Positions 8,708 to 37,389 of a DNA stretch of 64,000 nucleotides are shown here, piece after piece (the stretch's first letter is position 1; each line of letters starts with the position of its first letter). Both the position numbers and the translations under genes were made by a program. This DNA comes from an uncultured Anaerolineaceae bacterium (GTDB lineage Bacteria; Chloroflexota; Anaerolineae; Anaerolineales; DRMV01), in assembly GCA_964446575.1 (NCBI GenBank), contig CAYUOX010000062.1, forward strand, positions 19,871 to 83,870, given 5' to 3'. The notes beneath the pieces were generated by a model, which saw nothing but the letters and a program-made list of their open reading frames with translations, did no database searches and had not been told where the DNA came from.

Positions 8708-8729
8708 CCCCCACCACGAGGGATGTCCC

Positions 8730-9473: not shown

Positions 9474-9626
9474 GCGCGTGCAAAATACCACCCTGGCTGG
9501 CGAAAGGCTTTACCCATTTCAGGGGGATGCCCTCCGGGCAGGGCCGGCCGCGCGCGGGTCTGACAACTCGTGTTACAATCGCGGCACGACGCGACGAGGC
9601 ACGACGCGCCTCGCGAGGGGTTGCTT

Positions 9627-10894: not shown

Positions 10895-10907
10895 ACGCGA
10901 GGTCCTC

Positions 10908-11492: not shown

Positions 11493-11530
11493 CGCCTCGC
11501 GGCACTGTCCTCGCGTGCGGTCGCGCGGCC

Positions 11531-16763: not shown

Positions 16764-16879
16764 GGGTACCCTCCTATTGGGAGATGCGAACCAACCCAGC
16801 CAATGGGCAGCCATCCAATGTTCAGGATAGCGCTCGGTGCGGGCACGCGCCATTGTCATTCAGGCAAAAGCCCGGTTCC

Positions 16880-16918
16880 AAACGCAAAACGGCCCGCCGC
16901 GCGGGGCAGCGAGCCGTT
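16880..16918 (-). terminator. intrinsic terminator after the lipoprotein cytochrome c gene
   Basis: Minus-strand reading AACGGCTCGCTGC-cccgc-GCGGCGGGCCGTT, a 13-bp stem with two G.U pairs, followed by TTTTGCGTTT. Confidence 0.6.
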
Positions 16919-16953
16919 CCTGGGAGCCTTGAGATGCTGGCGCCTCCTGGGGG

Positions 16954-17580
16954 TTATTGTTCCTCGCCCGCCGGCGTACCGGCGAGGATCTCTAAACCCT
17001 TGTCGGGCGAATCGGCCGGCCGGCCCAGGGGCATGTCCTTCTTGATCACCAGGCGCTCGTACAAGATGGAGTTCTCCCAATCGCCGCCGCCCAAGATGTC
17101 GTTACCCTGGGCATCGGGCGCGCTGCGGTACGAACCGGCCAGGATGTCTTCGTAGGTCTCCAGGCTCAGGCCTGCGTTGGATTGGGTGCCGACGAAGTTG
17201 GCGTTGTGGCAGGCGGTGCAAGGCACCGAGCCCTCGTACCAAATGCCCATCTCGGTGAACAGCGGCAACACATCGGCCTCAAAGGTGGCCTGACAGGTTT
17301 GTCCGTCCAGGTCGGTGAAGGTGAACGGCTCGTCTTTGGGCGTGCCCGCGGCCACCCACGCGCCGATCAAGTCGGCCGGGTAGACCCGACAGCCCGCGGG
17401 GGCTTCGGCCACGGCCGCACCGGGTTCGGGGGTGGGTTCCGGCGGCAGCGTGGCCGGCGGCAGGGTGGGGATGGGCGTATGTTCGACCTGCGCGAAATCG
17501 GGCGCACCCTGAAGGCCACAACCCACCGCCACCACGGCCACCAGCGTGATCATCAGCCAAACGAAGATTCGCGTGCGCAT
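16954..17580 (-). CDS. lipoprotein monohaem c-type cytochrome
   Basis: ORF 16954..17580, ATG preceded by GAGGAGGTG. Lipobox VAVGCG, a Pro/Thr-rich linker, a single CTACH motif and a distal KKDMPLGRP (candidate Met ligand). It is the last gene of the ACIII-oriented run. Confidence 0.7.
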   Translation of the reverse strand: MRTRIFVWLMITLVAVVAVGCGLQGAPDFAQVEHTPIPTLPPATLPPEPTPEPGAAVAEAPAGCRVYPADLIGAWVAAGTPKDEPFTFTDLDGQTCQATFEADVLPLFTEMGIWYEGSVPCTACHNANFVGTQSNAGLSLETYEDILAGSYRSAPDAQGNDILGGGDWENSILYERLVIKKDMPLGRPADSPDKGLEILAGTPAGEEQ

Positions 17581-17615
17581 AAGGCGTCACCTCCTCGGGT
17601 TCGATGCAGGGGCCG

Positions 17616-18110
17616 TCATTGCCCGGCCTGGGCTTGCAAGGACCGAATGTAGTTGATCACATCCCAACGGTCCCGAATGGTCAGGCTCTCACGCATGGGG
17701 GGCATGTTGGGCGTGCCATTGGTGATGAACACAAACATGCCTTTGTCGTCCAGCGCGGAGGTCACCAAGTTGGCCGGCTTCAGGCCATAATCGGCCATCA
17801 CGCCGTCGCCCTGGCCTTGGGGACCGTGGCACACCGCGCAATGGATGTCATAGAGCACGCGGCCCCGCTGCAACGAGACTTCGTCCGCGGGCACGGGGTT
17901 GTCAGGGACGCCCACATACTTGACATACTCGGCCATATAGGGGACCGAATCCTCGGGCACCGGCAGCGGGTCTTCCATCGGCCGGTACGACGGTTGGTTC
18001 TCCATCATGGAAAGCCAGTCCACCTTGATGATCTCGTAGGTGAACAGCAATCCCACGATGAGGGGACCGCCCAGCAAAGTCAGGATGACGAACAGGCGTA
18101 GACCTTTCAT
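17616..18110 (-). CDS. actE: Alternative Complex III subunit ActE (monohaem cytochrome c, N-terminal anchor)
   Basis: ORF 17616..18110 with a 4-nt overlap with actD. One TM helix, a single CAVCHG and a downstream NMPPM. Confidence 0.75.
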   Translation of the reverse strand: MKGLRLFVILTLLGGPLIVGLLFTYEIIKVDWLSMMENQPSYRPMEDPLPVPEDSVPYMAEYVKYVGVPDNPVPADEVSLQRGRVLYDIHCAVCHGPQGQGDGVMADYGLKPANLVTSALDDKGMFVFITNGTPNMPPMRESLTIRDRWDVINYIRSLQAQAGQ

Positions 18111-18652
18111 ACGAACGACCCCTCCACTTCGGTGACCTCTTGCGCGCCTGCGGCCTGCAGGGCCTTGCGGGCCTCTTCGGCCAAGGTGCGCGAGGTTTGG
18201 AAGAACACCGCGATGGCGCTATCGCTGACCGCGGGGTGATACACCCGCTTGCCCACCACCGGCGGCAGCAGCGACTCGACCAAGACGCCGATGAAGGACG
18301 AGACCAGCAGGCCCAGCATGGTCAGTTCGAAGAGCAACACCAGGCTGGGCGGCACCGAATACAGGGGAAAGCCGCCCACATACAAGGGGTACAGCGCGGC
18401 TGTGCCATGGGTGAAAAACAGCCCCGACAGAAAGCCCAAGAACGCGCCTGCCAAGGCATATTTCGGCACCGCGGTCAACACCCGGGGCCGCCCTAAGATG
18501 CTGCTGGCATAAGGCACGCCGCTCTGAACCTGGATGAACTCATCGTCCACACCCACCTGGCGCAGGGCGTCCAACGCTGCCGGGACCTGCTCCACATCGT
18601 CGAAAACGGCCACGAACATCTGGGGCTCATAGCGCCCTTGATATCGCTCCAT
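18107..18652 (-). CDS. actD: Alternative Complex III subunit ActD (DUF3341-like)
   Basis: ORF 18107..18652, ATG after AAGGAGGG. Soluble N-domain (FVAVFDDVEQVPAALDALRQVG) plus two TM helices. Position between the NrfD-like and monohaem genes fits ActD. Confidence 0.75.
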   Translation of the reverse strand: MERYQGRYEPQMFVAVFDDVEQVPAALDALRQVGVDDEFIQVQSGVPYASSILGRPRVLTAVPKYALAGAFLGFLSGLFFTHGTAALYPLYVGGFPLYSVPPSLVLLFELTMLGLLVSSFIGVLVESLLPPVVGKRVYHPAVSDSAIAVFFQTSRTLAEEARKALQAAGAQEVTEVEGSFV

Positions 18653-18662
18653 GACGCCCTCC

Positions 18663-20108
18663 TTAGTCCAGAGACTCCAGGTCGCTCACCGCAGGCAGGA
18701 TGGCTTTGCCCACCCGCCGCCAGGTGTGCGAGTGCTGGCCCTCTTCCACTTCCCACACCGGGATCAACGGCAAGAACCGCGCCGCCAGGGTGTACAGGAA
18801 GAGGAACAGCATGAACGTGCCAAACACGATGGAGATTTCCACCAGTTGCGGTTCATACCAGCCCCAATCGAAGGGGAAGCGGTTGCGGCTCAGCGCGCCC
18901 GTCACAATGACATAGCGCTCCGCGAACATGCCGATGTTGACCACGATGCCCATGAGGAACATGAGCCACGGCGTGCGCCGGAACTTGCGGTTCCACAGCA
19001 ACAAGCCGGGGATGAACACGTTGCAGGTCACCATGGTCCACCACACGGGCGCGATGTCGCCGAACATGTAGAACTTGAGGATCTCCTTGACCGTGTGCTC
19101 GCCGCCGTACCATTCCAAGATGAACTCGTTGAAGAAGAAGTAGGCCCAACTCAGCGAGATGATCAGCAGCAGTTTGCCCAGCGCGTCGAAGTGCTCGGGC
19201 CGAATGAAGTAGCGCATGTTCTTGGTGGTGGCCCGCACGGTGAACAGCACCACATTCACGGCCGCAATGCCCGACAGCAGCGCGCCGATGATGAAGTAGG
19301 GCCCGAAGATGGTCGAGTGCCAACCCAACTTCATGGCCACCGCGAAGTCCCATGACACGATGGTGTGCACCGAGAACATCACCGGAATGATGGCCCACGC
19401 GAAGATCTGGATGGCCTTCTGCAGGTTCTTCCACTCTTGCTCGGTGCCCCGCCAGCCCAGGGCCAAGATGCCATACACCTTCTTGCGCCAGCCGGTGCTG
19501 CGGTCGCGGGCCATGGCCAAATCGGGAATCAACGGCATATAGAGATACAGGGTGCTGCCGATCAGGTAGGTGTTGATGGCGAAGAAGTCCCACAACAAGG
19601 GGGACCGCCAGTTGGGCCACAGCCAACGCTGATTCGGATAAGGCATCATCCAATAAAAGCGCCAAGTGCGGCCCAGGTGAATGAGGGGATACAGCCCCGC
19701 GGCGGCCAAGCCAAAAGTGGTCATCAACTCAGCCGCGCGAGTGAAGGGCCGCCGGAACTCGGCCTTGAACACCCGCAAAATGGCGGACACGAACGTGCCT
19801 GCGTGGCTGATGCCGATCCAAAACACGAATGCGACGATGAACAGCCCCCAGAAAATGGGCCGTCGAATGCCCGCCAGGCCCAGGCCTTTGAGCATCATAT
19901 AGCCCCAAGCGCCGAACAAGGTGACCGCGGTCAGCAACCCCAGCACGGTGACCGCGATTTTCCAGTCCCGGCTGGTGTCCTCCACGGCCTCCATGACCAT
20001 GTCGTTCATTTCGGCCCGGGACTTGTGGTCCAGCAGGAGATGTTCGCGTTTCATCTCCTCAATGCGGCGGGCTTCTTCTTCGTTGCGGGGGTGGAACTCA
20101 GAACTCAT
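18663..20108 (-). CDS. actC: Alternative Complex III subunit ActC (NrfD/PsrC-like quinol-interacting membrane subunit)
   Basis: ORF 18663..20108, 481 aa with about 10 TM helices. Contains FWGLFIVAFVFWIGISHAGTFVSAILRVF. The start overlaps the actB2 stop by 11 nt. Confidence 0.85.
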   Translation of the reverse strand: MSSEFHPRNEEEARRIEEMKREHLLLDHKSRAEMNDMVMEAVEDTSRDWKIAVTVLGLLTAVTLFGAWGYMMLKGLGLAGIRRPIFWGLFIVAFVFWIGISHAGTFVSAILRVFKAEFRRPFTRAAELMTTFGLAAAGLYPLIHLGRTWRFYWMMPYPNQRWLWPNWRSPLLWDFFAINTYLIGSTLYLYMPLIPDLAMARDRSTGWRKKVYGILALGWRGTEQEWKNLQKAIQIFAWAIIPVMFSVHTIVSWDFAVAMKLGWHSTIFGPYFIIGALLSGIAAVNVVLFTVRATTKNMRYFIRPEHFDALGKLLLIISLSWAYFFFNEFILEWYGGEHTVKEILKFYMFGDIAPVWWTMVTCNVFIPGLLLWNRKFRRTPWLMFLMGIVVNIGMFAERYVIVTGALSRNRFPFDWGWYEPQLVEISIVFGTFMLFLFLYTLAARFLPLIPVWEVEEGQHSHTWRRVGKAILPAVSDLESLD

Positions 20109-20817
20109 GGCGCCCTCCTGCCAGGTAGATCACCTTGGGCTCGGTGCCCAAGGCCTCTTCCAACTTGAAGGCCCGCTCGCTGGCGGCCAATTGGCGCACC
20201 CGGCTATTGGGGTCCCGCCAATTGCCGAAGACGATGGCCTCGGTGGGGCACGCTTGTGCGCACGCGGGCTGTACTTCGCCGTCGTACACTTCGCGGCCCT
20301 CGGCCTTGGCATCTTCCTCGGCCCGGCGGATGCGCTGGATGCAGAATGTGCACTTTTCCATGATGCCCCGGCGCCGCACCGTCACGTCGGGGTTGAGTTG
20401 GAAGTTGAGCGGCTCGGGCCACTCGTAATCGAACCAGTTGAAGGTGCGGGCGATATAAGGGCAGTTGTTGGCGCAGTAGCGGGTGCCGATGCAGCGGTTG
20501 TACACCTGGAGGTTGATCTCCTCGGCCTCGCTATGCAGCGTGGCATACACCGGGCACACGGGCTCGCAAGGCGCGTTGCTGCACTGTTGGCACATGGTCG
20601 GGATGTAGCGCACCCGCAGGTCGTCGCCTTCGCCTTCCCAATAGCGCTGCAGGCGCAGCCAGTGCATGCCCCGACCGTAGGCGTTCTCTTCTTCGCCCAC
20701 GAAGGCCACATTGTTCTCCATGGCGCACGCGGTCACGCACGCGCCGCAACCGTTACAACGGTCCAGGTCAATGACCATGACCCATTTGGTGTGTTCGTGT
20801 CCGTTACCACCAGCCAT
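20098..20817 (-). CDS. actB: Alternative Complex III iron-sulfur subunit (ActB2, 4Fe-4S ferredoxin-type)
   Basis: ORF 20098..20817. Cys clusters CNGCGACVTAC, CQQCSNAPCEPVC, CIGTRYCANNCP and CTFCIQR ... CAQACP are typical of CISM beta subunits. Confidence 0.85.
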   Translation of the reverse strand: MAGGNGHEHTKWVMVIDLDRCNGCGACVTACAMENNVAFVGEEENAYGRGMHWLRLQRYWEGEGDDLRVRYIPTMCQQCSNAPCEPVCPVYATLHSEAEEINLQVYNRCIGTRYCANNCPYIARTFNWFDYEWPEPLNFQLNPDVTVRRRGIMEKCTFCIQRIRRAEEDAKAEGREVYDGEVQPACAQACPTEAIVFGNWRDPNSRVRQLAASERAFKLEEALGTEPKVIYLAGGRHEF

Positions 20818-20830
20818 AACGCGCCTCTCC

Positions 20831-23011
20831 TTACTGGGCTACCCCATCGCCGTACACGCCGACCAAATGCTCTTTGCGGGCCAGGGGCCGTCGGCGGCCG
20901 GTCTTGCGCAACGAGACTCGCACACTGCCCCAAGCCAAATCGCCCGCGGCATTGGTCTGCGCACCCAGCAACTTGGCCGGATTCGCGCCCCGCCCTTCGG
21001 CCCAGCGGCCCAGGGCTTCGTGCCCTTGGCCAAAGGCCAGCGCCACCGTGTCGGGCCGAATGCCAGGGTACACATAGACCGCGGCGTACACCCGGCCGTA
21101 CGGCGAGCGGATTTCCACGATATCGTCGTGTCGCAGCCCCAGTTCGTGGGCCGTTTCAGGGTTGACTTCCACCCACGAGTTCCACATGACCGTGGTCATG
21201 GGCTCGGGGGTTTCTTGCAGCCAAGGCCGATTCGCGCCCGCGCCATCGCCCAAGATGGGATGCGGGTACACCACCAAGTGGAACTCGCCCTCACCAAAGC
21301 GCGGGGCGGGCACCTCCAGCGGCTGTTGCAAGAACGCGGTGGCGTCGAAAGGCTCCATGGCCGCGGGCTCTTGGGTCCACCAGCCACCGTGTTGCAAGAA
21401 ACGGCCCCAGAAGGCCTTGGGGGTGGCTTCCGCGTAGATGCCGCCCTCGGCCTGCATGAGTTGCGCCACGGCCTGTTGGACGAACTCGACTTCGTCTTTG
21501 TAAGGAACGGCTTCGGCCACCGCGCCGCCCATCGCCTGCACCGCGGCCAACAGCACGTCCGCGGTGGCTTTGGTGTCATAAAGCGGCACCACCACAGGCT
21601 GGGATGCCGTCACGGCCAGCCGGTCCGCGCCCACGCGCACCTTTTGGTAGCCCCACGACTCCAACGGGGTGTGGTCGGGGAAGATGTAGTCGGCTTGGGC
21701 CGCGGTTTCGTCGTAGAAGGGCGAGAAGGAAATGACCGTTTCGACTTGGGCCATGGCCTCGGCGAAGCCCAGCCCTGCAGGCAGTTCGAAGACCGGGTTG
21801 ACGCCGTGGATCAGCAACGCCTTGACCTCACCGGCCTTCATGCGGCGCACCAAGTCGGCCATGTCGCTCAGGCTGGCCGCGTCGCGGTCCTCGTAGATAG
21901 GTGCCGCGGGCAGCACCTGCACGCCACCGGGCTGGCCGAAGTTGCCAGCCCACGCGTTGAGGGCCAAGATGGCCTGCGCGGTCTCCAAGCCGTTGGTGTG
22001 CGCCAAGGCCGCGCCACCGGGGATGGCCAAGGGGCGCTCCGCGGTGGCGAAGTAATGCGCGATCTTCTCCAGCAGGGCCATTTCAATGCCGGCTTCTTCC
22101 GCGATGGCTGCCGCGTCCACATCAAACACGGGCGGGACTTCGCCATCGCGCATCTCCGCGGCCAAGCGCCCAATGGCCAAGGCAACCTGCCCCTCGGTGC
22201 CGGGTTTGAGGGCCACCCATTTGTCCGCGCTGGCCGCGGTCATCGACATGCGCGGCTCCAATTGCACGAACAGGCCCCGCACCCCAGGCCGGCCTCGCCG
22301 CATGTGGCCGTAGGCCCGGCTGAAGGCCACGGGCGACAACCAAGTTTCCATGAAGTTCGCGCCGAACGAGACCACGAAAGTGGCCTCCGCGATGTCGAAG
22401 TGCGGCAGGGCCTCTTGCCCCACCACGGCTTTCATGGCCTGCCGCAGGGTCTGACGGGCTTCGAACAGGGCCAGCCCGCCAAAGCGGATGGGCTTGGGCG
22501 CGCCCACGGCAGCCGCGATTTCCGCGACCAAATCGGCCAGATGGTCGGGCACCAACCCCAAGAGGAATTGCACTCCGGGGCCGGCCTGTAAGGCCTGGGC
22601 GACCACTTGCACCGCGTCGTCCCAAAGGAGTTCGCGCCACTCGCCGCTCCCGCGGCCTTGGGCTGCGCGCGGGCCACGCAAACGGTCGGGGTCGTAAAGC
22701 CCTTGCAAACTGGCCTGACCGCGCGCGCAGGTGCGGCCACGATTGACCGGATGCTGCGGATTGCCTTCCACCTTGATGGCGCGCCCCTCGACGGTGCGCA
22801 CCAAGATGCCGCACCCGGCAGGGCACTCGCGGCACAGGGTCGCAAAGTACACACTCTCGCCCGGCAATTGATACTCGGGCATGTCGGTGTAGGGTTTGCG
22901 GCGCACATAGCGGGACATGGGCCCACAGCCCGAGAGCACCGCCGCGACCGCGCCACCTACACCGGCCAGTTTGAGCACATCACGGCGTGTGAGTTTCTTT
23001 TCCTGGCTCAT
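20831..23011 (-). CDS. actB: Alternative Complex III molybdopterin-oxidoreductase-like subunit (ActB1) with TAT signal
   Basis: Track ORF 20831..23044; ATG at 23011 follows GAGGAG. Twin-arginine signal KLTRRDVLKLAGVGG and N-terminal Cys motif CRECPAGCG...C ARGQ. It is encoded separately from the FeS subunit. Confidence 0.85.
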   Translation of the reverse strand: MSQEKKLTRRDVLKLAGVGGAVAAVLSGCGPMSRYVRRKPYTDMPEYQLPGESVYFATLCRECPAGCGILVRTVEGRAIKVEGNPQHPVNRGRTCARGQASLQGLYDPDRLRGPRAAQGRGSGEWRELLWDDAVQVVAQALQAGPGVQFLLGLVPDHLADLVAEIAAAVGAPKPIRFGGLALFEARQTLRQAMKAVVGQEALPHFDIAEATFVVSFGANFMETWLSPVAFSRAYGHMRRGRPGVRGLFVQLEPRMSMTAASADKWVALKPGTEGQVALAIGRLAAEMRDGEVPPVFDVDAAAIAEEAGIEMALLEKIAHYFATAERPLAIPGGAALAHTNGLETAQAILALNAWAGNFGQPGGVQVLPAAPIYEDRDAASLSDMADLVRRMKAGEVKALLIHGVNPVFELPAGLGFAEAMAQVETVISFSPFYDETAAQADYIFPDHTPLESWGYQKVRVGADRLAVTASQPVVVPLYDTKATADVLLAAVQAMGGAVAEAVPYKDEVEFVQQAVAQLMQAEGGIYAEATPKAFWGRFLQHGGWWTQEPAAMEPFDATAFLQQPLEVPAPRFGEGEFHLVVYPHPILGDGAGANRPWLQETPEPMTTVMWNSWVEVNPETAHELGLRHDDIVEIRSPYGRVYAAVYVYPGIRPDTVALAFGQGHEALGRWAEGRGANPAKLLGAQTNAAGDLAWGSVRVSLRKTGRRRPLARKEHLVGVYGDGVAQ

Positions 23012-23079
23012 CCGTGCTTGTCTCCTCGCCTGGGGATGCAACAAAAAACCGCGTCGTTGGGGCCAGGCCCCAGGCGCGG

Positions 23080-23715
23080 TTACTTATGACAAGTTGCGCA
23101 GTCGGACAATTTGACGAAATGTTCCTCGTCGACCGAATTTTTGTGGCAACTCAGGCACCAGCCCATGTTTTGGTTTTTGATGGGCTCGGCTACGGTCATT
23201 TGCCCCACTTCGCCGTGGCAGGTTTCGCACGCGATGCCCGCGTTCACATGGGGCCGATGGCTGAAATAGACGAAGTCGGGCTGCATAGCCACCGGCACCC
23301 AAGGGATGGGCTCGTCTTGCATGGCATAGGGCCGCAACAAGCCCCGGCCTTCCGGCGGACCGCCTTGGCCCTCAGGGCCCTGGCTGGGTTTCCCTTGGCC
23401 TTGGCCCTTGCGGGCCGCGAACTCGTGCAAGCGCTTCTCCGCCGCGGTCTTGGGCTGGATGCTGTTGTGGCAGGCCATGCACTTGGTCAGCGACGGTAGG
23501 CCCGCGCTCACGCCCCGTTGCGCGTTGGAGTGGCAATACAAGCACGACATCCCCAAGTCTTGCACATGGCGCTGGTGGTTGAACTCCAACGGCTGAGCCG
23601 GGGGCTGCTGGCTCTGATAGAGCAGCACCGCGCCCCACAGCACCAGCGCGGCCAGCACCACACCCGCCACCCGCAACGCCACGCTCAGCAAACCACTGCG
23701 TTTGGCTTCGGTCAT
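23080..23715 (-). CDS. actA: Alternative Complex III pentahaem cytochrome c subunit ActA
   Basis: ORF 23080..23715, ATG after GAGGAG. N-terminal TM helix and five CXXCH motifs (CLYCH, CMACH, CETCH, CLSCH, CATCH). Confidence 0.85.
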   Translation of the reverse strand: MTEAKRSGLLSVALRVAGVVLAALVLWGAVLLYQSQQPPAQPLEFNHQRHVQDLGMSCLYCHSNAQRGVSAGLPSLTKCMACHNSIQPKTAAEKRLHEFAARKGQGQGKPSQGPEGQGGPPEGRGLLRPYAMQDEPIPWVPVAMQPDFVYFSHRPHVNAGIACETCHGEVGQMTVAEPIKNQNMGWCLSCHKNSVDEEHFVKLSDCATCHK

Positions 23716-23817
23716 ACCGCGCTCCTCGGTGATGGATGAAATCGAACGGCCGACACGGCTCCCAAGGCGTCCCGATGATTGGGCCCCTCGGCTGGGTCGG
23801 GCTCGGGAAACAGGGCT

Positions 23818-23847
23818 ATTATAACCGATGCGCCCATAATCGGTGAA
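23818..23847 (-). promoter_or_regulatory. candidate promoter of the ACIII cluster (TTCACC-18 nt-TATAAT)
   Basis: On the minus strand, TTCACC is at 23847..23842 and TATAAT at 23823..23818, about 100 nt upstream of the actA ATG (23715). Confidence 0.5.
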
Positions 23848-23870
23848 GATTTTCCCTGACGGCCCTCATG

Positions 23871-24746
23871 TCAAGGCGCAGGCGTGGCCGTGTCTGCAGC
23901 ATCCGCCTCGCCTTCGGCAGCGTCTAATTCGACACCTTTGCCGCTGCGCAGCCGCTCCAACAAGGCTTCGGCCTGCAACTGCGCATTGTGGGTGATGGGG
24001 AAGGTCAGATATTGTTCCAAATCCGCGATGGCCTCGTCGATCTTCCCCAAATTGGCATAGGCGATGGCCCGGTTGAAGTAGACCGCGGCCATGTCAGGGT
24101 TCAACGCTACCACCTTATTGAACGCTTCTAACGCGTCTTCGTCGCGCCCTTGCTTCAAATACAGGCTGCCCAAGTTGAACCACGCGGCCTCTGACTCGGG
24201 GTCCAGTTCCAAAGCCTTTTGGAAGTCTTGCTCGGCCAAATCGTAGATGTCCATTTGGAAATAGGCCAAGCCTCGGTTGATGAACACACTGGCCTCATCG
24301 GCCAGGCCGAATTGTAAGGCTTTGTTGAAATCTTCAACAGCCGAGACCGGCCGGCCCAAACTCAGCAGGACATTGCCACGGGCGGCGAAGGCCTCAGGGA
24401 AATGAGGGTTCTGCTCGAGGGCCTTGTTCAGGTCTTCCAACGCGGCCTCGTTTTCGCCCAACTCCAATTGCAGCAAGGCCCGATAGTAATAGGCTTGCGG
24501 GGCCGCGTCGGGGGCGGCCGCGATGGCAATGTCCAGGGCTTCCAGCGCGCCTTGCACATCACCGGCCGCGCTGCGCTCCAAAGCCAAATTGACGAAATCG
24601 TTGACCACCTCGGCCCGGCTGGCGGGCGGTGGCGTAGCCGCAGCCGCGGTCTGCTGTTGCCACAACACATACCCGCTGCCGACCAACAACATCGCGGCCA
24701 CCGCGGCCAACCAGGTCGAGGGACGGCGCCACCAAACTCGCTTCAT
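23871..24746 (-). CDS. membrane-anchored tetratricopeptide (TPR) repeat protein
   Basis: Track ORF 23871..24776; ATG at 24746 follows AGGTGG. One N-terminal TM helix, then repeated A..Y..RG/A..LG....A..DF..AL..P units (about 7 TPR-like repeats). Confidence 0.75.
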   Translation of the reverse strand: MKRVWWRRPSTWLAAVAAMLLVGSGYVLWQQQTAAAATPPPASRAEVVNDFVNLALERSAAGDVQGALEALDIAIAAAPDAAPQAYYYRALLQLELGENEAALEDLNKALEQNPHFPEAFAARGNVLLSLGRPVSAVEDFNKALQFGLADEASVFINRGLAYFQMDIYDLAEQDFQKALELDPESEAAWFNLGSLYLKQGRDEDALEAFNKVVALNPDMAAVYFNRAIAYANLGKIDEAIADLEQYLTFPITHNAQLQAEALLERLRSGKGVELDAAEGEADAADTATPAP

Positions 24747-24804
24747 GGGCAAACCACCTGCTGTGAAAGTTGTCACGAATTGTACCCCGTTTCGTCAAGG
24801 GCGC

Positions 24805-24840
24805 AAAATGCGGGGAGGACCAGGGATCGGTCCTCCCCGC
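24805..24840 (-). terminator. intrinsic terminator after the 12-haem cytochrome gene
   Basis: Perfect 12-bp stem GCGGGGAGGACC / GGTCCTCCCCGC (24810..24821 / 24829..24840) with a 7-nt loop, followed on the minus strand by ATTTTG. Confidence 0.6.
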
Positions 24841-24870
24841 ATGAGAGGGTGCGGCTCTACCTCGGGGGTG

Positions 24871-27492
24871 CTATGCGCCCTTTTGTCGCAGGGCCATGGC
24901 ACCGATGCCCAGCAGCAGGCCGATGACCAGCGCGGCCACCGCGTAACCTACCGGCACGCCCGTGGGGGCTTCGGCAGGCATCTCGGCCGGGGCCTCTGCC
25001 GCCGCCTCGGCCGCGGTCTGCTCGGCTGCCGCCTCCATCTCGCTCATCTGCTGCTTCAGGGTCTCCACCTCTTCCATGGCCTTCTTACCGGCCACCGCAT
25101 CATGGATCAGTTGGTTCATCAGGTTGATGTGGTCTTCGTTGGAGATGACCTGACCGTAGATGGCGATGACCTCATCCGTCCAGAAGGCCGGATCGACCAT
25201 GTTCTGGTGGCACCCCATGCACACGCCCACCCGCTCCATCTTGGTGCGCTTGTCAGCATCCAAGGGGCGGGAAGCCGGCCAGTGCTGACCGACGGTGACC
25301 AATTGCTCGCCCGTCTCGGGATCGAGCACCACGCTCCAATCGAAGGGCAGGTCGGGGATGGGCTGCATCTGCGGCTGGGTGTTCTGCGGGATCACATTGC
25401 CTTCCGCATCGACCAGGTCGATGTAGCGCGGCTCGGTGTAACCCCGCATGAAGATGCCGTTCTTGATGCCATAGCCCAAGGCCTTGGGGTCGTTGTGGCA
25501 CGACTCGCAAGTGCGAGCCTTGGCGCCCACGGTGTGCGGTTGCGCCGGCGCCATGTCGATGCCCCGCTGGCCTTCCTCACCCGCGCCTTCGGTGTTGGGC
25601 GGCGTGCGACCGATCTTGTTGTGCACCAGCGTGGTCCCATCGGGCCCGATGACGGTGTAGACCACTTGGCAGCCCGGAATGATGGGCGTCACCCGGCCTT
25701 CACCGTTGATGCCCAAGATGGGATCCTCCCAGCGCAGGTAGGCCCGACCTTCGGAGGCCTTACCTGGCTGCTTCTCGGTGTTCTTGCTGAATTCCAGGTG
25801 CTTGGCCGCACCGCCCGCCTCGCGGTACTTGTTGGCCGTCAAGATCCACGAGGTCGAGGTCTTCTCGCCGCTGTAGTCCACGACCACATGGCAGCCATAG
25901 CACTGCGGCGCCCACGAAGCATGGCACGCGTAGCACTCCATGTTGTCCATATGGGCGCCGATCTTGTCCATGGCCACCTGCGAGTCCATGGACTTCCAGG
26001 TGCCTTCTTCCTTGATCTTCTTCAGCAGCGGGACCTCGAAGTCCTTGCCATTGGCCGAGTGCAAGATGACCTTGTCGCCCGACTTGACCACGTTGCCGAA
26101 GGGGTTGCCGCGCGCGGTCAGCAGGTAGCCATCTTCCATGGGATAAATCATGCCGTAGGTCATCCACAGCGGCAGATTATCCTTCCACAGCCCGCGCGGG
26201 GATTCCAGGTCAACCCCTTCCAGAGCCGCGGTCAACTCCTCTTCCTGGTAGCCCAAGGGCAGTTCCCACGGGTAGGCGTCGGGCGTACCGTGGCAGTCCG
26301 CGCACTCGATCTCCACCTGGGCCAGGGTGGTGCCATAGATGTTGCCGTCACCGTGCATGTCGATGCTGGTGTGGCAGTCTTGGCACAACAAGCCACCCTT
26401 CTCGGGGTCCAGGCCCGCGTGGTGGATGTCATCCTGGATGAACAGGTATTGCTTGGTGTGCAGTTTGGGCTGCTTGCCACCCTTCTCGTTGAAGGGCGTG
26501 CCATAGGGGAATTCCATGATGCCCTCGTAACTCACGCCAATGCGCTTGCCGCGGTTGTGGCACGAGTTACAGGTTTCGACGGGAATCCCGCTGTAGGTCT
26601 TGTCGCCCACGGTCACTTGGGTGTCGCGGGTGGCCTGGATTTGGTGCACCAGGATGTGGCCGGGCTCGTCTTTGGGGATGGTGGGGTCGTTGCCCTCGTA
26701 GTAGCCCTCATTGCTGTAGGGCATGTGGCAGGCCGAGCAGCCCGTGCCCCGCCAGTCGCCCCGCTTGGCCCGCGGCGGCGTAGCCACATGGCAGCGCTGG
26801 CAGTCGCTGTGCATGTAGGTGAAGGACGCATACGCGGGGTTCTCGACGATTTCCTCCACCGTGGGCAGCGGCAGGCCTTCCAGTTTGTCGGGAATCTGAT
26901 CCGGCCAGGCCTTCTTCAAGGCTTCGGCATAGGCCTTGTAGGTGTCAGTACCGAAGATGGGGGTCGGCCCGTCCGTATCTTCGATGTCATAGTTGCCGTA
27001 GCGGACCTTGTGGATGTTGTCCGGATCCAGGCCATAGGGGCCACCAAACGCGCCAAAGGCCCACAGCGTGCCGTGGATCTTGCCGGCCTCGGTGTTCATG
27101 AGGGACTTTTGCAGCGCGTCGGCATAGCCCGGATGGCACTTGCCGCAGGTCTTGTCCGCGATCCACAGGTTCCCGGGGTCGGCGTAGAACGGTTGGCCAT
27201 TGCCGCCGTGCGCGGCGTTCTTGGCCTCTTCGTCGTTCATGTCCTCCGCGGTCACCGTGGGATCGCCGCCATGGCACGCAGTACACTGCCCCATGGCGTT
27301 GATCTGCTTCATCATGTCACTGTCTTGCGGGCGAATGTCTTCGATGCCCGCGTGACACGAGAGACAGCCCTCTTCTTCCTGGGCTACCACAGCCTGGGCC
27401 GCGCCCGTTTGGTCGCCCGCGTACACGCCTACGGCGACCAAGGCCACGGTCAGGAGGGTCAGCACCAGGGCCAACATCAGGCGTCGTCTCAT
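24871..27492 (-). CDS. 12-haem c-type cytochrome, signal peptide plus C-terminal transmembrane anchor
   Basis: Track ORF starts at GTG 27501; ATG at 27492 lies 7 nt after AAAGGAGGT. Twelve CXXCH motifs: CLSCH, CTACH, CGKCH, CQRCH, CSACH, CNSCH, CQDCH, CADCH, CYACH, CYGCH, CESCH, CMGCH. Ala/Glu-rich helix and hydrophobic tail VGYAVAALVIGLLLGIGAMAL at the C-terminus. Confidence 0.85.
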   Translation of the reverse strand: MRRRLMLALVLTLLTVALVAVGVYAGDQTGAAQAVVAQEEEGCLSCHAGIEDIRPQDSDMMKQINAMGQCTACHGGDPTVTAEDMNDEEAKNAAHGGNGQPFYADPGNLWIADKTCGKCHPGYADALQKSLMNTEAGKIHGTLWAFGAFGGPYGLDPDNIHKVRYGNYDIEDTDGPTPIFGTDTYKAYAEALKKAWPDQIPDKLEGLPLPTVEEIVENPAYASFTYMHSDCQRCHVATPPRAKRGDWRGTGCSACHMPYSNEGYYEGNDPTIPKDEPGHILVHQIQATRDTQVTVGDKTYSGIPVETCNSCHNRGKRIGVSYEGIMEFPYGTPFNEKGGKQPKLHTKQYLFIQDDIHHAGLDPEKGGLLCQDCHTSIDMHGDGNIYGTTLAQVEIECADCHGTPDAYPWELPLGYQEEELTAALEGVDLESPRGLWKDNLPLWMTYGMIYPMEDGYLLTARGNPFGNVVKSGDKVILHSANGKDFEVPLLKKIKEEGTWKSMDSQVAMDKIGAHMDNMECYACHASWAPQCYGCHVVVDYSGEKTSTSWILTANKYREAGGAAKHLEFSKNTEKQPGKASEGRAYLRWEDPILGINGEGRVTPIIPGCQVVYTVIGPDGTTLVHNKIGRTPPNTEGAGEEGQRGIDMAPAQPHTVGAKARTCESCHNDPKALGYGIKNGIFMRGYTEPRYIDLVDAEGNVIPQNTQPQMQPIPDLPFDWSVVLDPETGEQLVTVGQHWPASRPLDADKRTKMERVGVCMGCHQNMVDPAFWTDEVIAIYGQVISNEDHINLMNQLIHDAVAGKKAMEEVETLKQQMSEMEAAAEQTAAEAAAEAPAEMPAEAPTGVPVGYAVAALVIGLLLGIGAMALRQKGA

Positions 27493-27628
27493 AGACCGCA
27501 CCTCCTTTGGTAGAGTATCGAGATGGGCGTCGAGAGCCGCAACACGCCAAGAGGCGCCTCCCTCTTCGCCCCTTCATTTTCCATTAATTCAACCCCTGAG
27601 GCATCCCACAGGGGCATGATTCATATCA

Positions 27629-27653
27629 CCCTGGAGGGTGATTTCATGAGTCA
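27629..27653. promoter_or_regulatory. bipartite motif CCCTGGAGGG-6 nt-CATGAGTCA upstream of the 12-haem cytochrome gene
   Basis: Exact 10-mer at 27629..27638 inside the palindrome TCACCCTggAGGGTGA (27626..27641). Exact 9-mer at 27645..27653. The same two words with the same 6-nt gap occur at 54645..54669. Confidence 0.45.
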
Positions 27654-27679
27654 TTGATGAAAATCGCCCCGCACCCCTT

Positions 27680-27710
27680 AAAAAAACGAGCCCCCGCAGA
27701 ACGGGGGCTC
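27680..27710 (-). terminator. intrinsic terminator of groES-groEL
   Basis: Minus strand reads GAGCCCCCG-ttct-CGGGGGCTC followed by TTTTTTT, 27 nt after the groEL stop. Confidence 0.8.
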
Positions 27711-27736
27711 GTGGGCCAGGTACGGCCGGTCAGGGA

Positions 27737-29368
27737 TTAGAACTCGGGCGTGGGCGGCGTGTTGGACTTCTCTTCTTCGGGCACGTCGGTGATCAAGGCC
27801 TCGGTGGTCAAGATCATGCCCGCGATGGACGCCGCGTTCTCCAGCGCGCCCCGGGTCACCTTGGCCGGGTCGATGACGCCCGCGTCGACCATGTCCTCAT
27901 ACTTCTCCGTCAGCACGTTGTAGCCGATGCGCTTGTTCTTCTGCTCGGCCTGCAGGCGCTTGACGTGCTCGACCACCACCGAACCGTCAACGCCCGCGTT
28001 CTCCGCGATGAGGCGCATGGGCACGCTCAGGGCCTTGCGCACGATGTTGATGCCCATCTGCTCGTCTTCGTTGTCGCCCTGCAGCCCTTCCAGCGCCTCG
28101 ATGGCGTTCAGCAGCGCCACACCACCGCCGGGCACAATGCCCTCTTCCACCGCGGCCCGGGTCGCGCTCACCGCGTCCTCGACCCGATGCTTCTTCTCCT
28201 TCAATTCGGTCTCGGTCGCAGCACCCACCCGGATGATGGCCACACCGCCGGCCAGTTTGGCCAAGCGCTCTTGCAGTTTCTCCCGGTCATAGTCGCTGGT
28301 GGCGCGCTCGATCTCGGCCTTGATCTGTTCGATGCGGGCCTTGATCATGTCAGGATCGCCCTTGCCGCCGATGATGGTGGTGTCTTCCTTGGTGGCCACC
28401 ACTTTCTCGGCCCGGCCCAAGTCCTCGATGGTCACGCCTTCCAACTTGCGGCCGGTCTCTTCGGAGATGAGTTGCGCGCCCGTCAAGATGGCGATGTCTT
28501 GCAGCATTGCCTTGCGGCGCTCACCAAAGCCGGGGGCCTTCACCGCCAAGACATTCAGGATGCCCCGCAACTTGTTCAGCACCAGCGTGGCCAGCGCTTC
28601 CCCTTCCACATCTTCCGCGATGACCACCAGTTCGCGCTTGCCGATCTGCAGCAACTTCTCCAGCAGCGGAACCAGGTCCTGGGCCGCGGAGATCTTCTTG
28701 TCATACACCAAGATATAGGGGTTCTCGATCACCGCCTCCATGTTCTCGGGGTCGGTGATGAAGTAGGGCGAAATGTAGCCGCGATCGAACTGCATACCTT
28801 CCACATATTCGGTCTCGAACTCCAAGCCCTTGGACTCTTCCACCGTGATCACGCCGTCGTTGCCGACCTTTTCGAAGACCTCGGCGATCAACTCACCGAT
28901 GGCCTGGTCTTGGGCCGAGATCGCGGCCACATGAGCCATTTGCTCCTTGGTCTTGATCTCGATGGCTTCGCCCTTGATGTGCTCGGCCGCCTTCTTGGCC
29001 GCTTTCTCGATGCCGCGCTTGAGCAGCATGGCGTTGGCACCCGCGGCCAAGGCCTTCATGCCCTCGGTCACGATCGCGTGCGCCAACACCGTGGAAGTGG
29101 TGGTGCCGTCACCCGCGATGTCGTTGGTCTTGGTGGCCGCTTCCTTCAGCAATTGCGCGCCCATGTTCTCAAAGGGGTCTTCCAGTTCGATTTCCTTGGC
29201 CACCGACACACCGTCATGGGTGATGGACGGCGCACCGAACTTGCGATCCAAGGCCACATTGCGGCCCTTGGGGCCCAGCGTCGTCGCCACGGCCTTGGCC
29301 AAAATGTCAATCCCTTTCTTCAAACGTTGGCGGGCTTCATCGGCAAAAACGATTTGTTTGGCAGCCAT
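27737..29368 (-). CDS. groL: chaperonin GroEL
   Basis: ORF 27737..29368. [38 protein letters not shown]..., AGDGTTT and GGVALL give an unambiguous GroEL. Confidence 0.97.
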
Positions 29369-29421
29369 AGGGTCACCTCCTTGGCAATGGCTTCTTCAGG
29401 GCGTCGCGTCACGCGACGGTA

Positions 29422-29724
29422 TTACTCTTCGGTCACAATGGCCAAAATGTCACTTTCGCGCAGGATGAGCAACTTCTCGCCATCCACCTTCACTTCCGTC
29501 CCCGCGTACTTCGCGAAGATCACCTTGTCCCCCACTTTGACGCTCATGGGGATGCGGCCGTCACCGTCTTCATTCCACTCACCAGGGCCCACGGCCAACA
29601 CTTCGCCCTTCTGGGGCTTTTCCTTGGCGGTCTCGGGCAACACCAGCCCCGAAGGCGTGCGCTCCTCTTCCTCGATGGGCTTGACTACCACCCGATTGGC
29701 CAAAGGCTGCAATTTCACGGCCAT
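29422..29724 (-). CDS. groS: co-chaperonin GroES
   Basis: Track ORF 29422..29775; ATG at 29724 follows [56 protein letters not shown], about 100 aa. Confidence 0.95.
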
Positions 29725-29786
29725 CTTGCCCTCCTTTTCTTGGAGATGAATCATGATGCAGAGATGATTCTGCACTACCGCCCCTA

Positions 29787-29935: not shown

Positions 29936-30850
29936 ATGACCGCCAACGCCAAACCGGGATGGCTCGGCGGTGGCCTCTTGGCCATCGGAACGTTGGCCGC
30001 ACGTTTTGAGGCCGATGTCACCGGGCCCGACGGCGCCCCGCTCGCGGCCGGCACCGCGTTTACCCAAACTTGGCGGCTGCGCAACGGGGGCTCGCGCCCT
30101 TGGGCCATCACCTTCACCGTCTACTTCGACCAGGGCGACCACATGGACAGCCCCGGGAATATCCACCTGCCCTACGCGGTGGACCCCAGCGAAGCGGCGG
30201 ATGCCCGTGTGAACCCACGGCCTCCCGACGCGCCGGGGGCGTACAAGGGCTACGGAGAATTACGCTCTGACCAAGGCCGGGCGTTCGGCATCGGTGCAGA
30301 GCAGCGCACGGCGTTTTGGGTGGCCATGCGGGCGACGGCTCCCGCGGCCACGGCCACGCTGGCCAATGCCGATTTGGCGCTGCCTTATGACCCAGCCAAC
30401 AGCGACACCCTGTACGAGCAAGGCCCTCCGGCCAGCCGCGGCCCCGTCATGGCGGGCGACACCGACACCAACCGCCAAGTTCGCGGCCGCCTCACTTGCG
30501 ACCTCTCCCACATCCCCGGCATGGTAACCCACGCGAAGGTCGACTTGGGCTGCACCCAACAACTCGGCGCCCCCTTCACCGAACTGGGCGGCACCTGGGT
30601 AGCCGAGGTCGTCTTCGCGCGCCCCCTGCGCGCGGGGCTTTACGACCCGCCGGGCACCCCGCTCACCTCGCCGACCGCGTTGCCCACGGAACCGCGGGTT
30701 GAGGTGACCCAGCAAGTGCAGCCCCGCTTGACCGCGGGCGATCCCGAGTTCCACCTGCGCCTGCACCCCCAAAAGCCCACCGACCGCGATGGGAGCGCCG
30801 ACGCCATCCTCTGCCCTCGGGCCGTGCTGCGGATCACCTACCAGCCGTAG
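29936..30850 (+). CDS. NBR1-FW (Ig-like) domain protein, paralog 1 (lacks anchor/linker)
   Basis: ORF 29936..30850, ATG after AGGAGA. FEADVTGPDGAPLAAGTAFTQTWRLRNGGSRPWAITFTVYFDQGDHM matches the FW-domain pattern of the next two genes. The conserved Cys residues are lost and there is no long TM/PT region. Confidence 0.6.
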   Translation: MTANAKPGWLGGGLLAIGTLAARFEADVTGPDGAPLAAGTAFTQTWRLRNGGSRPWAITFTVYFDQGDHMDSPGNIHLPYAVDPSEAADARVNPRPPDAPGAYKGYGELRSDQGRAFGIGAEQRTAFWVAMRATAPAATATLANADLALPYDPANSDTLYEQGPPASRGPVMAGDTDTNRQVRGRLTCDLSHIPGMVTHAKVDLGCTQQLGAPFTELGGTWVAEVVFARPLRAGLYDPPGTPLTSPTALPTEPRVEVTQQVQPRLTAGDPEFHLRLHPQKPTDRDGSADAILCPRAVLRITYQP

Positions 30851-30905
30851 GGGGTGACGCCCATCGTTTTGTTCGCGCGATCCCCCATTCGGAAGGAGTT
30901 GCAGC

Positions 30906-32096: not shown

Positions 32097-32178
32097 GATC
32101 GGATAGAAACGCGCGTGGAGGCCCTGGCCAGGGGCCTCCACGCGCGCGCAGCATCCCTTGGTGTTTCGAGGAGGGCCT

Positions 32179-37385: not shown

Positions 37386-37389
37386 GGGC

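Follow-up and report, generated by a model that had tools for sequence, protein, structure and literature searches.

A 12-haem cytochrome and its tetratricopeptide repeat partner upstream of a predicted reduced Alternative Complex III in an uncultured Anaerolineaceae bacterium

A 64,000-nucleotide (nt) stretch of DNA from an uncultured Anaerolineaceae bacterium (positions 19,871 to 83,870 of contig CAYUOX010000062.1, assembly GCA_964446575.1; this whole stretch is called the window) carries on its minus strand, at 16954-27492, nine consecutive open reading frames (ORFs) for a 12-haem cytochrome (MHC), a membrane-anchored tetratricopeptide repeat (TPR) protein, the Alternative Complex III (ACIII) subunits ActA, ActB1, ActB2, ActC, ActD and ActE, and a lipoprotein monohaem cytochrome c (lipoC). 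The nine genes can be divided into two units, MHC-TPR and ACIII-lipoC, and that in Chloroflexota the former is coupled to a complex-III-type enzyme, the two units working together, is on balance the likelier state of affairs. The MHC-TPR pair probably plugs into the respiratory chain as a branch; as a wire to minerals it is not proven. Where the electrons of an ACIII without a neighbouring oxidase go has been a long-standing question, for which the MHC locus provides a concrete, testable candidate. The nine genes, with the evidence for each in brackets, are:

24871..27492, minus strand: MHC, 873 amino acids (aa) (ORF, motifs, Pfam/NCBIfam, hydropathy, AlphaFold2 model, conservation)
23871..24746, minus strand: TPR protein, membrane-anchored, 291 aa, with about 5-6 TPR repeats facing outward (ORF, Pfam, hydropathy)
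23080..23715, minus strand: ActA, penta-haem, with an N-terminal membrane helix (ORF, motifs, Pfam/NCBIfam, hydropathy)
20831..23011, minus strand: ActB1, molybdopterin-like, with a twin-arginine translocation (TAT) signal and the lipobox LSGC (ORF, Pfam/NCBIfam, hydropathy)
20098..20817, minus strand: ActB2, 4Fe-4S cluster subunit, its own gene apart from ActB1 (ORF, Pfam/NCBIfam)
18663..20108, minus strand: ActC, NrfD-like integral membrane subunit, predicted to interact with quinol (ORF, Pfam, hydropathy)
18107..18652, minus strand: ActD, PF11821/DUF3341 (Pfam, E 4.7e-23)
17616..18110, minus strand: ActE, monohaem class I cytochrome c with an N-terminal helix (ORF, motif, Pfam, hydropathy)
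16954..17580, minus strand: lipoC, lipoprotein monohaem cytochrome c (ORF, motif, Pfam, hydropathy)

Adjacency to quinol-oxidising complexes in relatives

The neighbourhood set consisted of 80 MHC genome loci with 10-kb flanks and 9 loci with precomputed Pfam annotation (labelled L001 and so on). The MHC gene, mostly together with the TPR gene, stands directly upstream of a quinol:cytochrome c oxidoreductase in 11 of the 17 informative Chloroflexota loci, this being ACIII, of two lineages, in four and a Rieske/cytochrome b complex in seven; three kinds of oxidoreductase, two of them non-homologous, are thus found downstream of the pair. As the same position is taken by a non-homologous complex, a real functional coupling is argued for, since replacement by an analogue at the same position is classical evidence of coupling and hard to get by chance. 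A link of the 12-haem protein to quinol oxidation, which had been proposed in a previous reading of the window made from the sequence alone (the sequence-only reading), is upheld by these 11 loci.

The full order MHC-TPR-ActA-B1-B2-C-D-E recurs only in L010 (on the same contig as L170) and in L069, labelled Promineifilaceae, where the MHC is 60% and 56% identical, respectively, to the window protein. In L011, MHC-TPR is followed by haem-copper oxidase subunit I (COX1) and then by the other ACIII lineage, whose ActA is 31% identical. The seven loci with the Rieske/cytochrome b complex after MHC (L004, L007, L016, L046, L171, L172 and L173) form another Chloroflexota clade in the MHC tree, usually have a TPR homologue between MHC and the Rieske/cytochrome b cluster, and show a five-gene order of an iron-sulfur (FeS) flavoprotein (Fer4_20/Pyr_redox_2), cytochrome b6, a subunit-IV-like protein, the Rieske protein and a tetra-haem class I cytochrome c. 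The TPR-like gene and the flavoprotein gene share 8 nt in L171 and 4 nt in L172. The coordinates of the flavoprotein/Rieske/cytochrome b cluster in L004 are 6213-11582. A 'Rieske' tblastn match in L085 was disregarded, as there is no Rieske gene among the called genes of this locus.

Gene content and domains of the locus

All nine ORFs are co-oriented on the minus strand, and the 19 haem motifs counted in the sequence-only reading are recovered as 12 CXXCH motifs in MHC, five in ActA and one each in ActE and lipoC; a motif scan found neither CXXCK nor CX3-4CH motifs in the proteins of the cluster. Profile searches (Pfam/NCBIfam) recovered the ACIII subunit domains for ActA to ActE, namely c7/c3 domains in ActA, the TAT signal with Molybdop_Fe4S4, Molybdopterin and Molydop_binding domains in ActB1, 4Fe-4S dicluster (Fer4) domains in ActB2, NrfD (PF03916, E 2.4e-21) in ActC, which has several hydrophobic segments, PF11821 in ActD (82 bits against a cut-off of 25.7), and a Cytochrome_CBB3/Cytochrom_C match in ActE. 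The MHC shows c7/c3-type haem domains, with Pfam matches to Cytochrome_C7 (49.7 bits) and to the MtrC/MtrF II-IV penta-haem domain (42.5 bits, cut-off 30), and the TPR protein five TPR_1 repeats, while the sole Pfam match of lipoC, PSCyt1, is sub-threshold. By hydropathy, hydrophobic segments lie at 5-23 and 850-868 of MHC, 10-28 of the TPR protein, 8-26 of ActA, 6-24 of ActE and 5-23 of lipoC, the last ending in the lipobox AVGC, which bears out the proposal that each cytochrome possesses a membrane tether of its own.

The MHC start codon is the ATG at 27492, with the Shine-Dalgarno sequence GGAGGTG 6 nt upstream; the gene caller of the public record uses the same ATG, the ATG at 24746 for TPR, and 23011 as the start of ActB1 (726 aa), the longest ORF of which reaches 23044. 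The locus is flanked by groES/groEL upstream and pyruvate phosphate dikinase downstream, and identical proteins in public collections derive from a 160,618-bp metagenome contig (ena:ERZ27262694:k141_293289), with cluster-mates labelled Chloroflexota. The menB gene named in the sequence-only reading lies at 62130-63005, where it was recognised from the translation alone, and hints at menaquinone. No oxidase, cupredoxin, NirS, Nap or Rieske/cytochrome b gene is found within the window, nor is any homologue of the MHC-associated histidine kinase, response regulator, NirS, COX1 or Rieske/cytochrome b proteins of relatives, and the usual ACIII partners are, as had been observed, not adjacent.

The ACIII variant and its lipoprotein cytochrome

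With a penta-haem anchored ActA, ActB modules, an NrfD-like ActC, ActD and a monohaem ActE, the assignment as ACIII holds, as a variant with split ActB and without ActF. ActE is directly followed by lipoC, and no second NrfD/ActC-like match, as would be required for ActF, is present anywhere in the window; the act genes therefore encode a predicted reduced ACIII variant, with ActB split into ActB1 and ActB2 and with no ActF. The TAT signal of ActB1 (22900-23011, minus strand) ends in a lipobox, which is LSGC here and LTGC in the ACIII relative L090 (7010-7130), and suggests that ActB1 of the window/L090 clade is TAT-exported and lipid-anchored.

A reciprocal survey covered 80 metagenome ACIII loci with ActC 39-66% identical, about 20 of which carry upstream sequence. 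In this set, homologues of lipoC directly follow ActE in L088 (55% identity; its contig carries no upstream sequence) and in L090 (47%; no MHC within 6.4 kb upstream), and a tri-haem lipoprotein class I cytochrome takes the lipoC position after ActE in L092, as it also does in the MHC locus L010. Because its homologues follow ActE in L088 and L090, the latter without upstream MHC, lipoC goes with ACIII and is a predicted accessory or carrier of this ACIII clade, independent of MHC. A lipid-anchored carrier would be expected in a cell without a closed periplasm, judging from known lipoprotein cytochromes of monoderms. The sequence-only reading had placed MHC, TPR and lipoC as one system around ACIII; this is revised, in that lipoC belongs with ACIII and TPR with MHC.

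The 12-haem cytochrome family

By sequence, the MHC belongs to a large, tight and unnamed family, and no curated family was matched. Among 8,000 candidates examined, at least 2,549 proteins match at E ≤ 1e-5, and at least 524 matches were confirmed in species-representative genomes of many phyla. Carriers among the matches listed are Chloroflexota, Thermaceae, Alpha- and Gammaproteobacteria, Planctomycetota, Gemmatimonadales, Flavobacteriales, Dadabacteria, Poribacteria and Acidimicrobiia, mostly from marine sediment, sand or hydrothermal metagenome bins. Isolates carrying the family are Aliiruegeria lutimaris DSM 25294 and Tropicimonas isoalkanivorans DSM 19548 (L036, L034). The window protein is 51-60% identical to its homologues even between phyla, and clustering at 50% reduces the family to a handful of representatives, with 205 representatives for the wider superfamily at E ≤ 1e-30. 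Source annotations of the homologues read only 'cytochrome C', 'cytochrome c3 family protein' or 'hypothetical', and no paper describing the family was found in the literature. This phylogenetic distribution is established, as are the gene content, the domain identities and the pairings of the locus.

An AlphaFold2 model of MHC based on a 119-sequence alignment reached a pLDDT (predicted local distance difference test) of 87.1 and a pTM (predicted template modelling score) of 0.88, so that structure prediction of the 12-haem protein, proposed along with the sequence-only reading, provided a model without a neighbour in the PDB by Foldseek at E ≤ 0.001; an earlier model from 25 sequences had a pLDDT of 57, and its Foldseek comparison with the PDB gave only noise. 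Searching PDB sequences with the family profile yielded nothing beyond a trivial match to cytochrome c555 (E 0.0011). The order of domains is an N-terminal signal-like helix, a tri-haem c7-like region, a helical region, the penta-haem MtrC/MtrF-like domain, a beta-rich domain (about 455-650) which in the model bears haems 9 and 10, two C-terminal haems, a coiled coil and the C-terminal transmembrane anchor at 850-868.

In 80 MHC sequences from several phyla, all 12 CXXCH motifs and exactly 11 further histidines are invariant; with 12 haems and only 11 extra invariant histidines, one haem would therefore be without a histidine as distal ligand. The same sequences share a single invariant lone cysteine, Cys608, in the motif PGCQ within the beta-rich domain. 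In a comparison with 12 distant relatives of 31-57% identity, Cys608 is absent in four, all of which also lack haem 10 (CXXCH at 531), and kept in eight, seven of which retain haem 10. Haem 10 is possibly special and His/Cys-ligated, and its co-variation with Cys608 hints at a catalytic site; His/Cys ligation of haem is typical of sulfur-metabolising multihaem cytochromes (bioRxiv 10.1101/2025.11.18.688581).

The TPR partner and other neighbours of the cytochrome

A TPR gene stands directly downstream of MHC in 35 of the 80 loci by clustering and in 41 by tblastn, distributed over Chloroflexota, Thermaceae, Gammaproteobacteria, Planctomycetota and Flavobacteriales, and a gene for a Rap1a-like protein of about 130 aa (PF18602) takes this position in 28 loci, mostly of Alphaproteobacteria. 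With the partner in L172, a locus of the Rieske/cytochrome b type, the window TPR protein shares 39% identity. Since TPR follows MHC in phyla without ACIII at this place, the TPR protein is the predicted partner of MHC and not of ACIII, and MHC with TPR is, as judged from gene order, a portable pair across many phyla. Most simply, the TPR protein would be a maturation or docking factor for MHC; the CcmI/NrfG-like role put forward in the sequence-only reading may apply, the protein scoring 34.1 bits against PF23914 (TPR_CcmH_CycH), below the cut-off of 42. A recurrent gene for a protein of about 200 aa follows the TPR gene in 18 loci. A gene for a Uma2-family putative endonuclease is located between MHC and TPR in L001 (10974-11672), and another Uma2 gene is found at the end of the L010/L170 cluster.

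In diderms, a gene for a Porin_5 outer-membrane protein adjoins MHC in 9 of the 80 loci and in L168 and L169. A diderm three-gene set of MHC, Rap1a-like protein (PF18602) and Porin_5 is seen in L168 (10001-13939), L169, L024, L064 and others. Regulators and cytochrome maturation genes vary with the lineage: Crp/Fnr regulators with CcmF/H/I stand beside MHC in 19 loci of Alphaproteobacteria, HemN with FixS/FixI genes near MHC in one alphaproteobacterial locus, ccm genes near MHC in Thermaceae, in Chloroflexota, L008 and L086 among them, a dCache/PF21623 histidine kinase plus a NarL-type regulator, and in some Gammaproteobacteria sigma-54 regulators. In Alphaproteobacteria, the gene divergent from MHC is usually one for a Crp/Fnr regulator; in the window, a Crp/Fnr-family regulator gene is present at 4245-4940 (plus strand), about 20 kb from the cytochrome cluster.

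Location of the cytochrome and possible reaction partners

A C-terminal transmembrane tail is found in 16 of 20 Chloroflexota MHC sequences versus 3 of 60 others, one of the three deriving from an Acidimicrobiia bin. With the signal-like N-terminus and this tail, Chloroflexota MHC is predicted to be membrane-bound at the outer face. The MHC of diderms, having no membrane-anchor tail, is therefore probably soluble in the periplasm, and the anchor looks like an adaptation of cells that lack an outer membrane and not like a device for cell-surface display.

NirS-like genes, as found by tblastn, are located immediately upstream of MHC in L005, L069 and L171 and after the Rieske/cytochrome b cluster in L046 and L173, with the Pfam domain Cytochrom_D1 confirmed for those of L171 and L173. 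NapAB genes are divergent from MHC in L046, and haem-copper oxidase genes lie near MHC in L171 and L011. The neighbours in these relatives point to low-oxygen respiration.

Spacing and transcription signals

Between actA and lipoC, neighbouring genes either leave gaps of 10-68 nt, that between ActE and lipoC being 35 nt, or overlap, ActB2 and ActC by 11 nt and ActD and ActE by 4 nt, and the gaps around the TPR gene measure 124 nt (MHC-TPR) and 155 nt (TPR-actA). The following signals are found between and around the genes:

27686..27712, minus strand: strong intrinsic terminator after groEL (terminator scan)
27493..27650, minus strand: MHC leader/promoter region (conserved with the 92% relative L008 despite a different upstream gene)
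24805..24842, minus strand: hairpin with a 15-bp stem and a TTTT tail after the MHC stop codon (fold, comparison with L008)
24779..24784, minus strand: TACAAT, a -10-like hexamer before the TPR gene (sequence, kept in L008)
23818..23847, minus strand: TTCACC-18-TATAAT, a promoter-like site before actA (scan, 10/12 matches)
16878..16920, minus strand: stem-loop with a U-rich tail after lipoC (fold z only -0.63)

In the hairpin after MHC, a TTTTG run comes after a perfect stem of 15 bp (24842-24808); the hairpin folds over 88 nt with -43.7 kcal/mol (z -3.84) and is kept in L008; as its T-tract is too short for the terminator scan, it is a candidate for a partial terminator or an mRNA-stabilising element. 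The hexamer before the TPR gene has no properly spaced -35 element. The site before actA is the sole sigma-70-like site in 11 kb, one against 2.0 expected and so not significant by count, which leaves it suggestive by its position only, and the stem-loop after lipoC is a plausible end of the ACIII-lipoC unit. The groEL terminator shields MHC from upstream transcription.

The leader is conserved with L008 over about 155 nt, and exactly upstream of it synteny breaks, with groES-groEL in the window (27493-29775) facing a different region in L008 (4500-6433). L008 and most Chloroflexota loci carry at this position the dCache histidine kinase and the NarL-type response regulator, and with groESL in their place the window locus has therefore been rearranged. 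Inside the leader, at 27626-27641 and about 134 nt upstream of the MHC start, lies the perfect 7-2-7 palindrome TCACCCTCCAGGGTGA. Its layout resembles operators of the NarL family, and relatives carry a NarL-type regulator upstream; as a general NarL-type operator it was rejected, since L008 is the only locus sharing it, the others with kinase and regulator being without it.

The likely transcription units are MHC, TPR and actA-lipoC. Of the separate signals claimed in the sequence-only reading, the hairpin, TACAAT, TTCACC-18-TATAAT and the stem-loop at the end are all present, but the TTCACC site is without statistical significance and the end stem without a notable fold score. The sequence-only reading was right to speak of a neighbourhood and not of a demonstrated operon, because there are separate intergenic signals for MHC, for the TPR gene and for ACIII.

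Proposed mechanism and alternative explanations

What we infer from these observations is the coupling of the two units, physical or electronic, which way the electrons flow, what the substrate is, and what the TPR protein and Cys608 do. ACIII and lipoC would constitute the normal quinol-oxidising trunk, with menaquinol oxidised at ActC, electrons passing via the Fe-S clusters and the haems of ActA and ActE to acceptors at the outer face, and lipoC acting as the usual tethered carrier of the clade. The second unit would be MHC with the membrane-anchored TPR protein, habitually upstream of a complex-III-type enzyme in Chloroflexota, which is ACIII here and the Rieske/cytochrome b complex in the sister clade. 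Held at the membrane by its C-terminal helix, MHC would exchange electrons with ACIII as a side branch of the chain, probably taking up quinol-derived electrons when oxygen is poor, and would hand them to, or itself reduce, an extracytoplasmic acceptor, for which an N-oxide or a sulfur compound would be likelier than a mineral; a hub role of MHC would likewise be more probable than mineral reduction. Haem 10 with the invariant Cys608 is the candidate special site of MHC, and the TPR protein may help MHC to mature or dock.

A more far-reaching version can be put forward only tentatively: MHC-TPR may be an unrecognised, horizontally mobile respiratory 'terminal module', a His/Cys-haem (haem 10/Cys608) enzyme which docks on the complex-III-type oxidoreductase of its host, be it ACIII, the Rieske/cytochrome b complex or, via the periplasm of diderms, the housekeeping bc1 complex, and which reduces or oxidises a substrate so far tied to no multihaem enzyme; this doubtful standing applies to all these parts taken together.

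Several findings weigh against a coupling to ACIII. The adjacency of MHC and ACIII is rare and not general. It was found in 4 of 80 MHC loci; no such neighbour is present in L001 (the 73% sister), L002, L003, L012, L017 or L020, nor in any of about 55 MHC loci outside Chloroflexota. Of the conservation among relatives which was to be expected from the sequence-only reading, the recurrence of MHC-TPR-ACIII in L010/L170 and L069 stood and a common occurrence, with L001 as an example to the contrary, did not. From the side of ACIII, neither MHC nor the TPR partner occurs in any of the about 20 ACIII loci with upstream sequence, the close relative L090 included. In this window, groESL replaces the kinase and regulator which precede MHC in relatives, no NirS, Nap or oxidase gene is present, and the conserved hairpin after MHC and the promoter-like sites before the TPR gene and actA make the units look separate. 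The MHC loci are phylogenetically non-independent, with perhaps only three independent junction events among them, and the MHC tree is a neighbour-joining tree without support values.

The neighbourhood might then be a coincidence, with MHC-TPR as a mobile, separately regulated cassette beside an ordinary ACIII-lipoC, ACIII feeding an oxidase elsewhere and MHC drawing on another source. Such a cassette would suit the separate transcription signals, the occurrence of MHC alone and with its own regulators in most phyla, the upstream boundary rearranged relative to L008, the Uma2 gene inside the pair of L001 and the loci L001-L003 and L090 without adjacency. It is nevertheless unlikely in view of the 11 of 17 informative Chloroflexota loci in which a complex-III-type enzyme, of three kinds, comes next, of the gene overlaps in L171 and L172, and of the full synteny retained at 56-60% MHC identity; by estimate and not by computation, a single pair would come to lie beside one of a few clusters of this type, among the several thousand genes of a genome, with a chance well below 1% per event.

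Somewhat less likely still is the wire to the cell surface suggested in the sequence-only reading, in which ACIII, the tethered monohaem cytochrome and MHC would serve the reduction of Fe(III), Mn(IV) or an electrode, or electron uptake. Twelve haems, an above-threshold MtrC/MtrF II-IV domain together with a beta-rich domain as in MtrC-family proteins, and the origin of most MHC loci from marine sediment or hydrothermal bins are compatible with a wire, as are the Porin_5 gene beside MHC in diderms, the remote relative ExtM in a Geobacter cluster with the porin ExtI (PMC5877670) and the proposal, made for other phyla, that ACIII-like clusters next to multihaem cytochromes serve iron reduction (PMC9386147). 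However, a survey of Desulfuromonadia reported no class of multihaem cytochromes less conserved than the extracellular ones (PMC11492766), whereas the MHC family is 51-60% identical between phyla with all haem sites invariant. Ardenticatena maritima 110S, an iron- and nitrate-reducing Chloroflexi isolate for which electron transfer to electrodes was shown, has no cytochrome with more than seven haems (PMC5808234), and it was rejected as a model for MHC. The porin of about 390 aa is small, no MtrA/MtrB-type partner emerged from neighbour-gene clustering of the 80 MHC loci, and the MHC of diderms is short-tailed, without an anchor and probably periplasmic. The neighbours in relatives (NirS, Nap, haem-copper oxidases) suggest soluble acceptors. 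With haem sites and further histidines conserved, an anchor specific to Chloroflexota, and NirS, Nap and Fnr as neighbours, nothing specific speaks for the wire, which keeps a low probability.

Very unlikely is a reverse flow, by which MHC would oxidise an extracytoplasmic donor (reduced sulfur, Fe(II) or hydroxylamine) and feed lipoC and an oxidase and, via ACIII running backward, the quinones. Many carriers are binned as Thiosymbion, Sedimenticola, Chromatiales, Halothiobacillaceae or a relative of Beggiatoa, lineages better known for sulfur oxidation. The invariant Cys608, co-varying with haem 10, would fit this, His/Cys haems being typical of sulfur-metabolising cytochromes (bioRxiv 10.1101/2025.11.18.688581), as would the uphill electron flow proposed for ACIII in iron oxidisers (PMC4643136, PMC5566968) and the NAD(P)-type flavoprotein in the Rieske/cytochrome b clusters of relatives, which is reminiscent of proposals for NAD(P)H production in anammox bacteria (PMC12954380), but ligation of haem by Cys608 is only putative, Fnr/Crp regulators and NirS/Nap neighbours fit a reductive role at low oxygen better, and sox, dsr or cyc2 were not noticed among the neighbours, although no dedicated search for them was made.

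The underlying concept, that ACIII or bc complexes feed multihaem cytochromes, is not new. Periplasmic multihaem acceptors of ACIII and bc complexes have been considered on theoretical grounds (Refojo 2012 and Dibrova 2013, both cited by PMC5317091), such a feeding has been proposed from genomes (PMC9386147) and is under study in anammox bacteria (PMC12954380). Descriptions of the TPR/Rap1a-like partner of the MHC family, of the alternation of ACIII with the Rieske/cytochrome b complex and of the co-variation of Cys608 and haem 10 were not found in the literature. If the terminal-module reading were true, MHC-TPR would constitute a branch of anaerobic or microaerobic respiration that is both new and widespread among marine sediment bacteria. 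Identification of the substrate could add a step to the cycling of nitrogen, sulfur or metals in sediments and would clarify extracytoplasmic electron transfer in bacteria without an outer membrane.

Other features of the window

At 54765-57119 (plus strand), the window encodes a 549-aa octahaem cytochrome (PF11783 Cytochrome_cB, 8 CXXCH) followed by a cytochrome b561-type protein (PF01292), a pair which is the predicted second quinol-linked multihaem module of the window. Three tandem paralogues with PF16158 (N_BRCA1_IG), followed by an ABC-transporter ATPase, lie at 29936-33027 (plus strand). The ORFs at 34797-37670 (minus strand, 957 aa) and 58394-59989 (plus strand, 531 aa) show coding-like GC content at third codon positions and no Pfam match at E ≤ 0.001.

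Comparison with known systems

The Qrc complex (QrcABCD) of sulfate reducers consists of the same building blocks, and the best NCBIfam matches of ActA, ActB1 and ActB2 are Qrc models. Qrc is without ActD and ActE, both of which are present in the window, and membership was rejected with scores of 104/180, 292/440, 256/400 and 23.5/570, all below the cut-offs.

As in the decahaem MtrC/OmcA/UndA family, an MtrC/MtrF II-IV domain is present in MHC and haem domains are mixed with a beta-rich domain; in contrast, the MHC family is far more conserved and its model has no counterpart in the PDB by Foldseek at the above threshold. An assignment as OmcA/MtrC (TIGR03507) was rejected at 27 bits against a cut-off of 209 and with no lipobox.

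The best curated match of MHC is ExtM of Geobacter sulfurreducens (GSU2935; NF040943, E 4e-65, residues 229-769), which with 220 bits against the equivalog cut-off of 800 makes MHC a remote relative and not a member. ExtM also has 12 haems and is encoded in the extHIJKLMNOPQS cluster beside the Rieske protein ExtO and the cytochrome b ExtP, the cluster also encoding the porin ExtI and the small protein ExtJ (PMC5877670), to which, with ExtM, the diderm set of MHC, Rap1a-like protein and Porin_5 is a loose parallel. With about 600 aa, ExtM is shorter than the 770-870 aa of the MHC family, and neither a rhodanese nor an MccSep/ExtKL homologue was noticed in the window, where no specific search for them was made. 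In His/Cys enzymes of the SoxA/TsdA/MccSep type, a conserved cysteine is the distal haem ligand, a role for which the invariant lone Cys608 of MHC is a putative counterpart.

In anammox bacteria, complex-III-type enzymes are encoded with large multihaem cytochromes (Kuste4569-4574, Kustd1480-1485), as in the Chloroflexota relatives, and the seven loci of the Rieske/cytochrome b clade encode, by composition, the same kind of FeS/flavin adenine dinucleotide protein, cytochrome b, subunit IV, Rieske protein and multihaem cytochrome c. For the anammox bc complexes, the multihaem part has been proposed to run the favourable half-reaction, and NAD(P)H production has been proposed (PMC12954380). The window differs in having ACIII, with neither Rieske/cytochrome b nor flavoprotein, and its MHC is not like hydroxylamine oxidoreductase.

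The TPR partner is comparable to the chaperones CcmI and NrfG in being membrane-anchored, in its outward TPR repeats and in being encoded beside a multihaem cytochrome, and ccmF/H/I genes adjoin MHC in Alphaproteobacteria and Thermaceae. It departs from them in that no non-canonical haem motifs requiring a dedicated lyase are present and in that the TPR similarity is generic.

Compared with canonical ACIII (ActABCDEF), the window has ActB split into ActB1 and ActB2 and no ActF, an ActE with an N-terminal helix and no lipobox cysteine, an ActB1 whose TAT signal ends in a lipobox, an extra lipoprotein cytochrome after ActE and no adjacent oxidase genes. A split ActB is known from iron oxidisers (PMC4643136), and act clusters without ActF from Caldithrix and MBNT15 (PMC5317091, PMC9386147). 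The subunits ActA to ActE and their gene order are common to the window and the ACIII of Rhodothermus marinus, Flavobacterium johnsoniae and Roseiflexus castenholzii.

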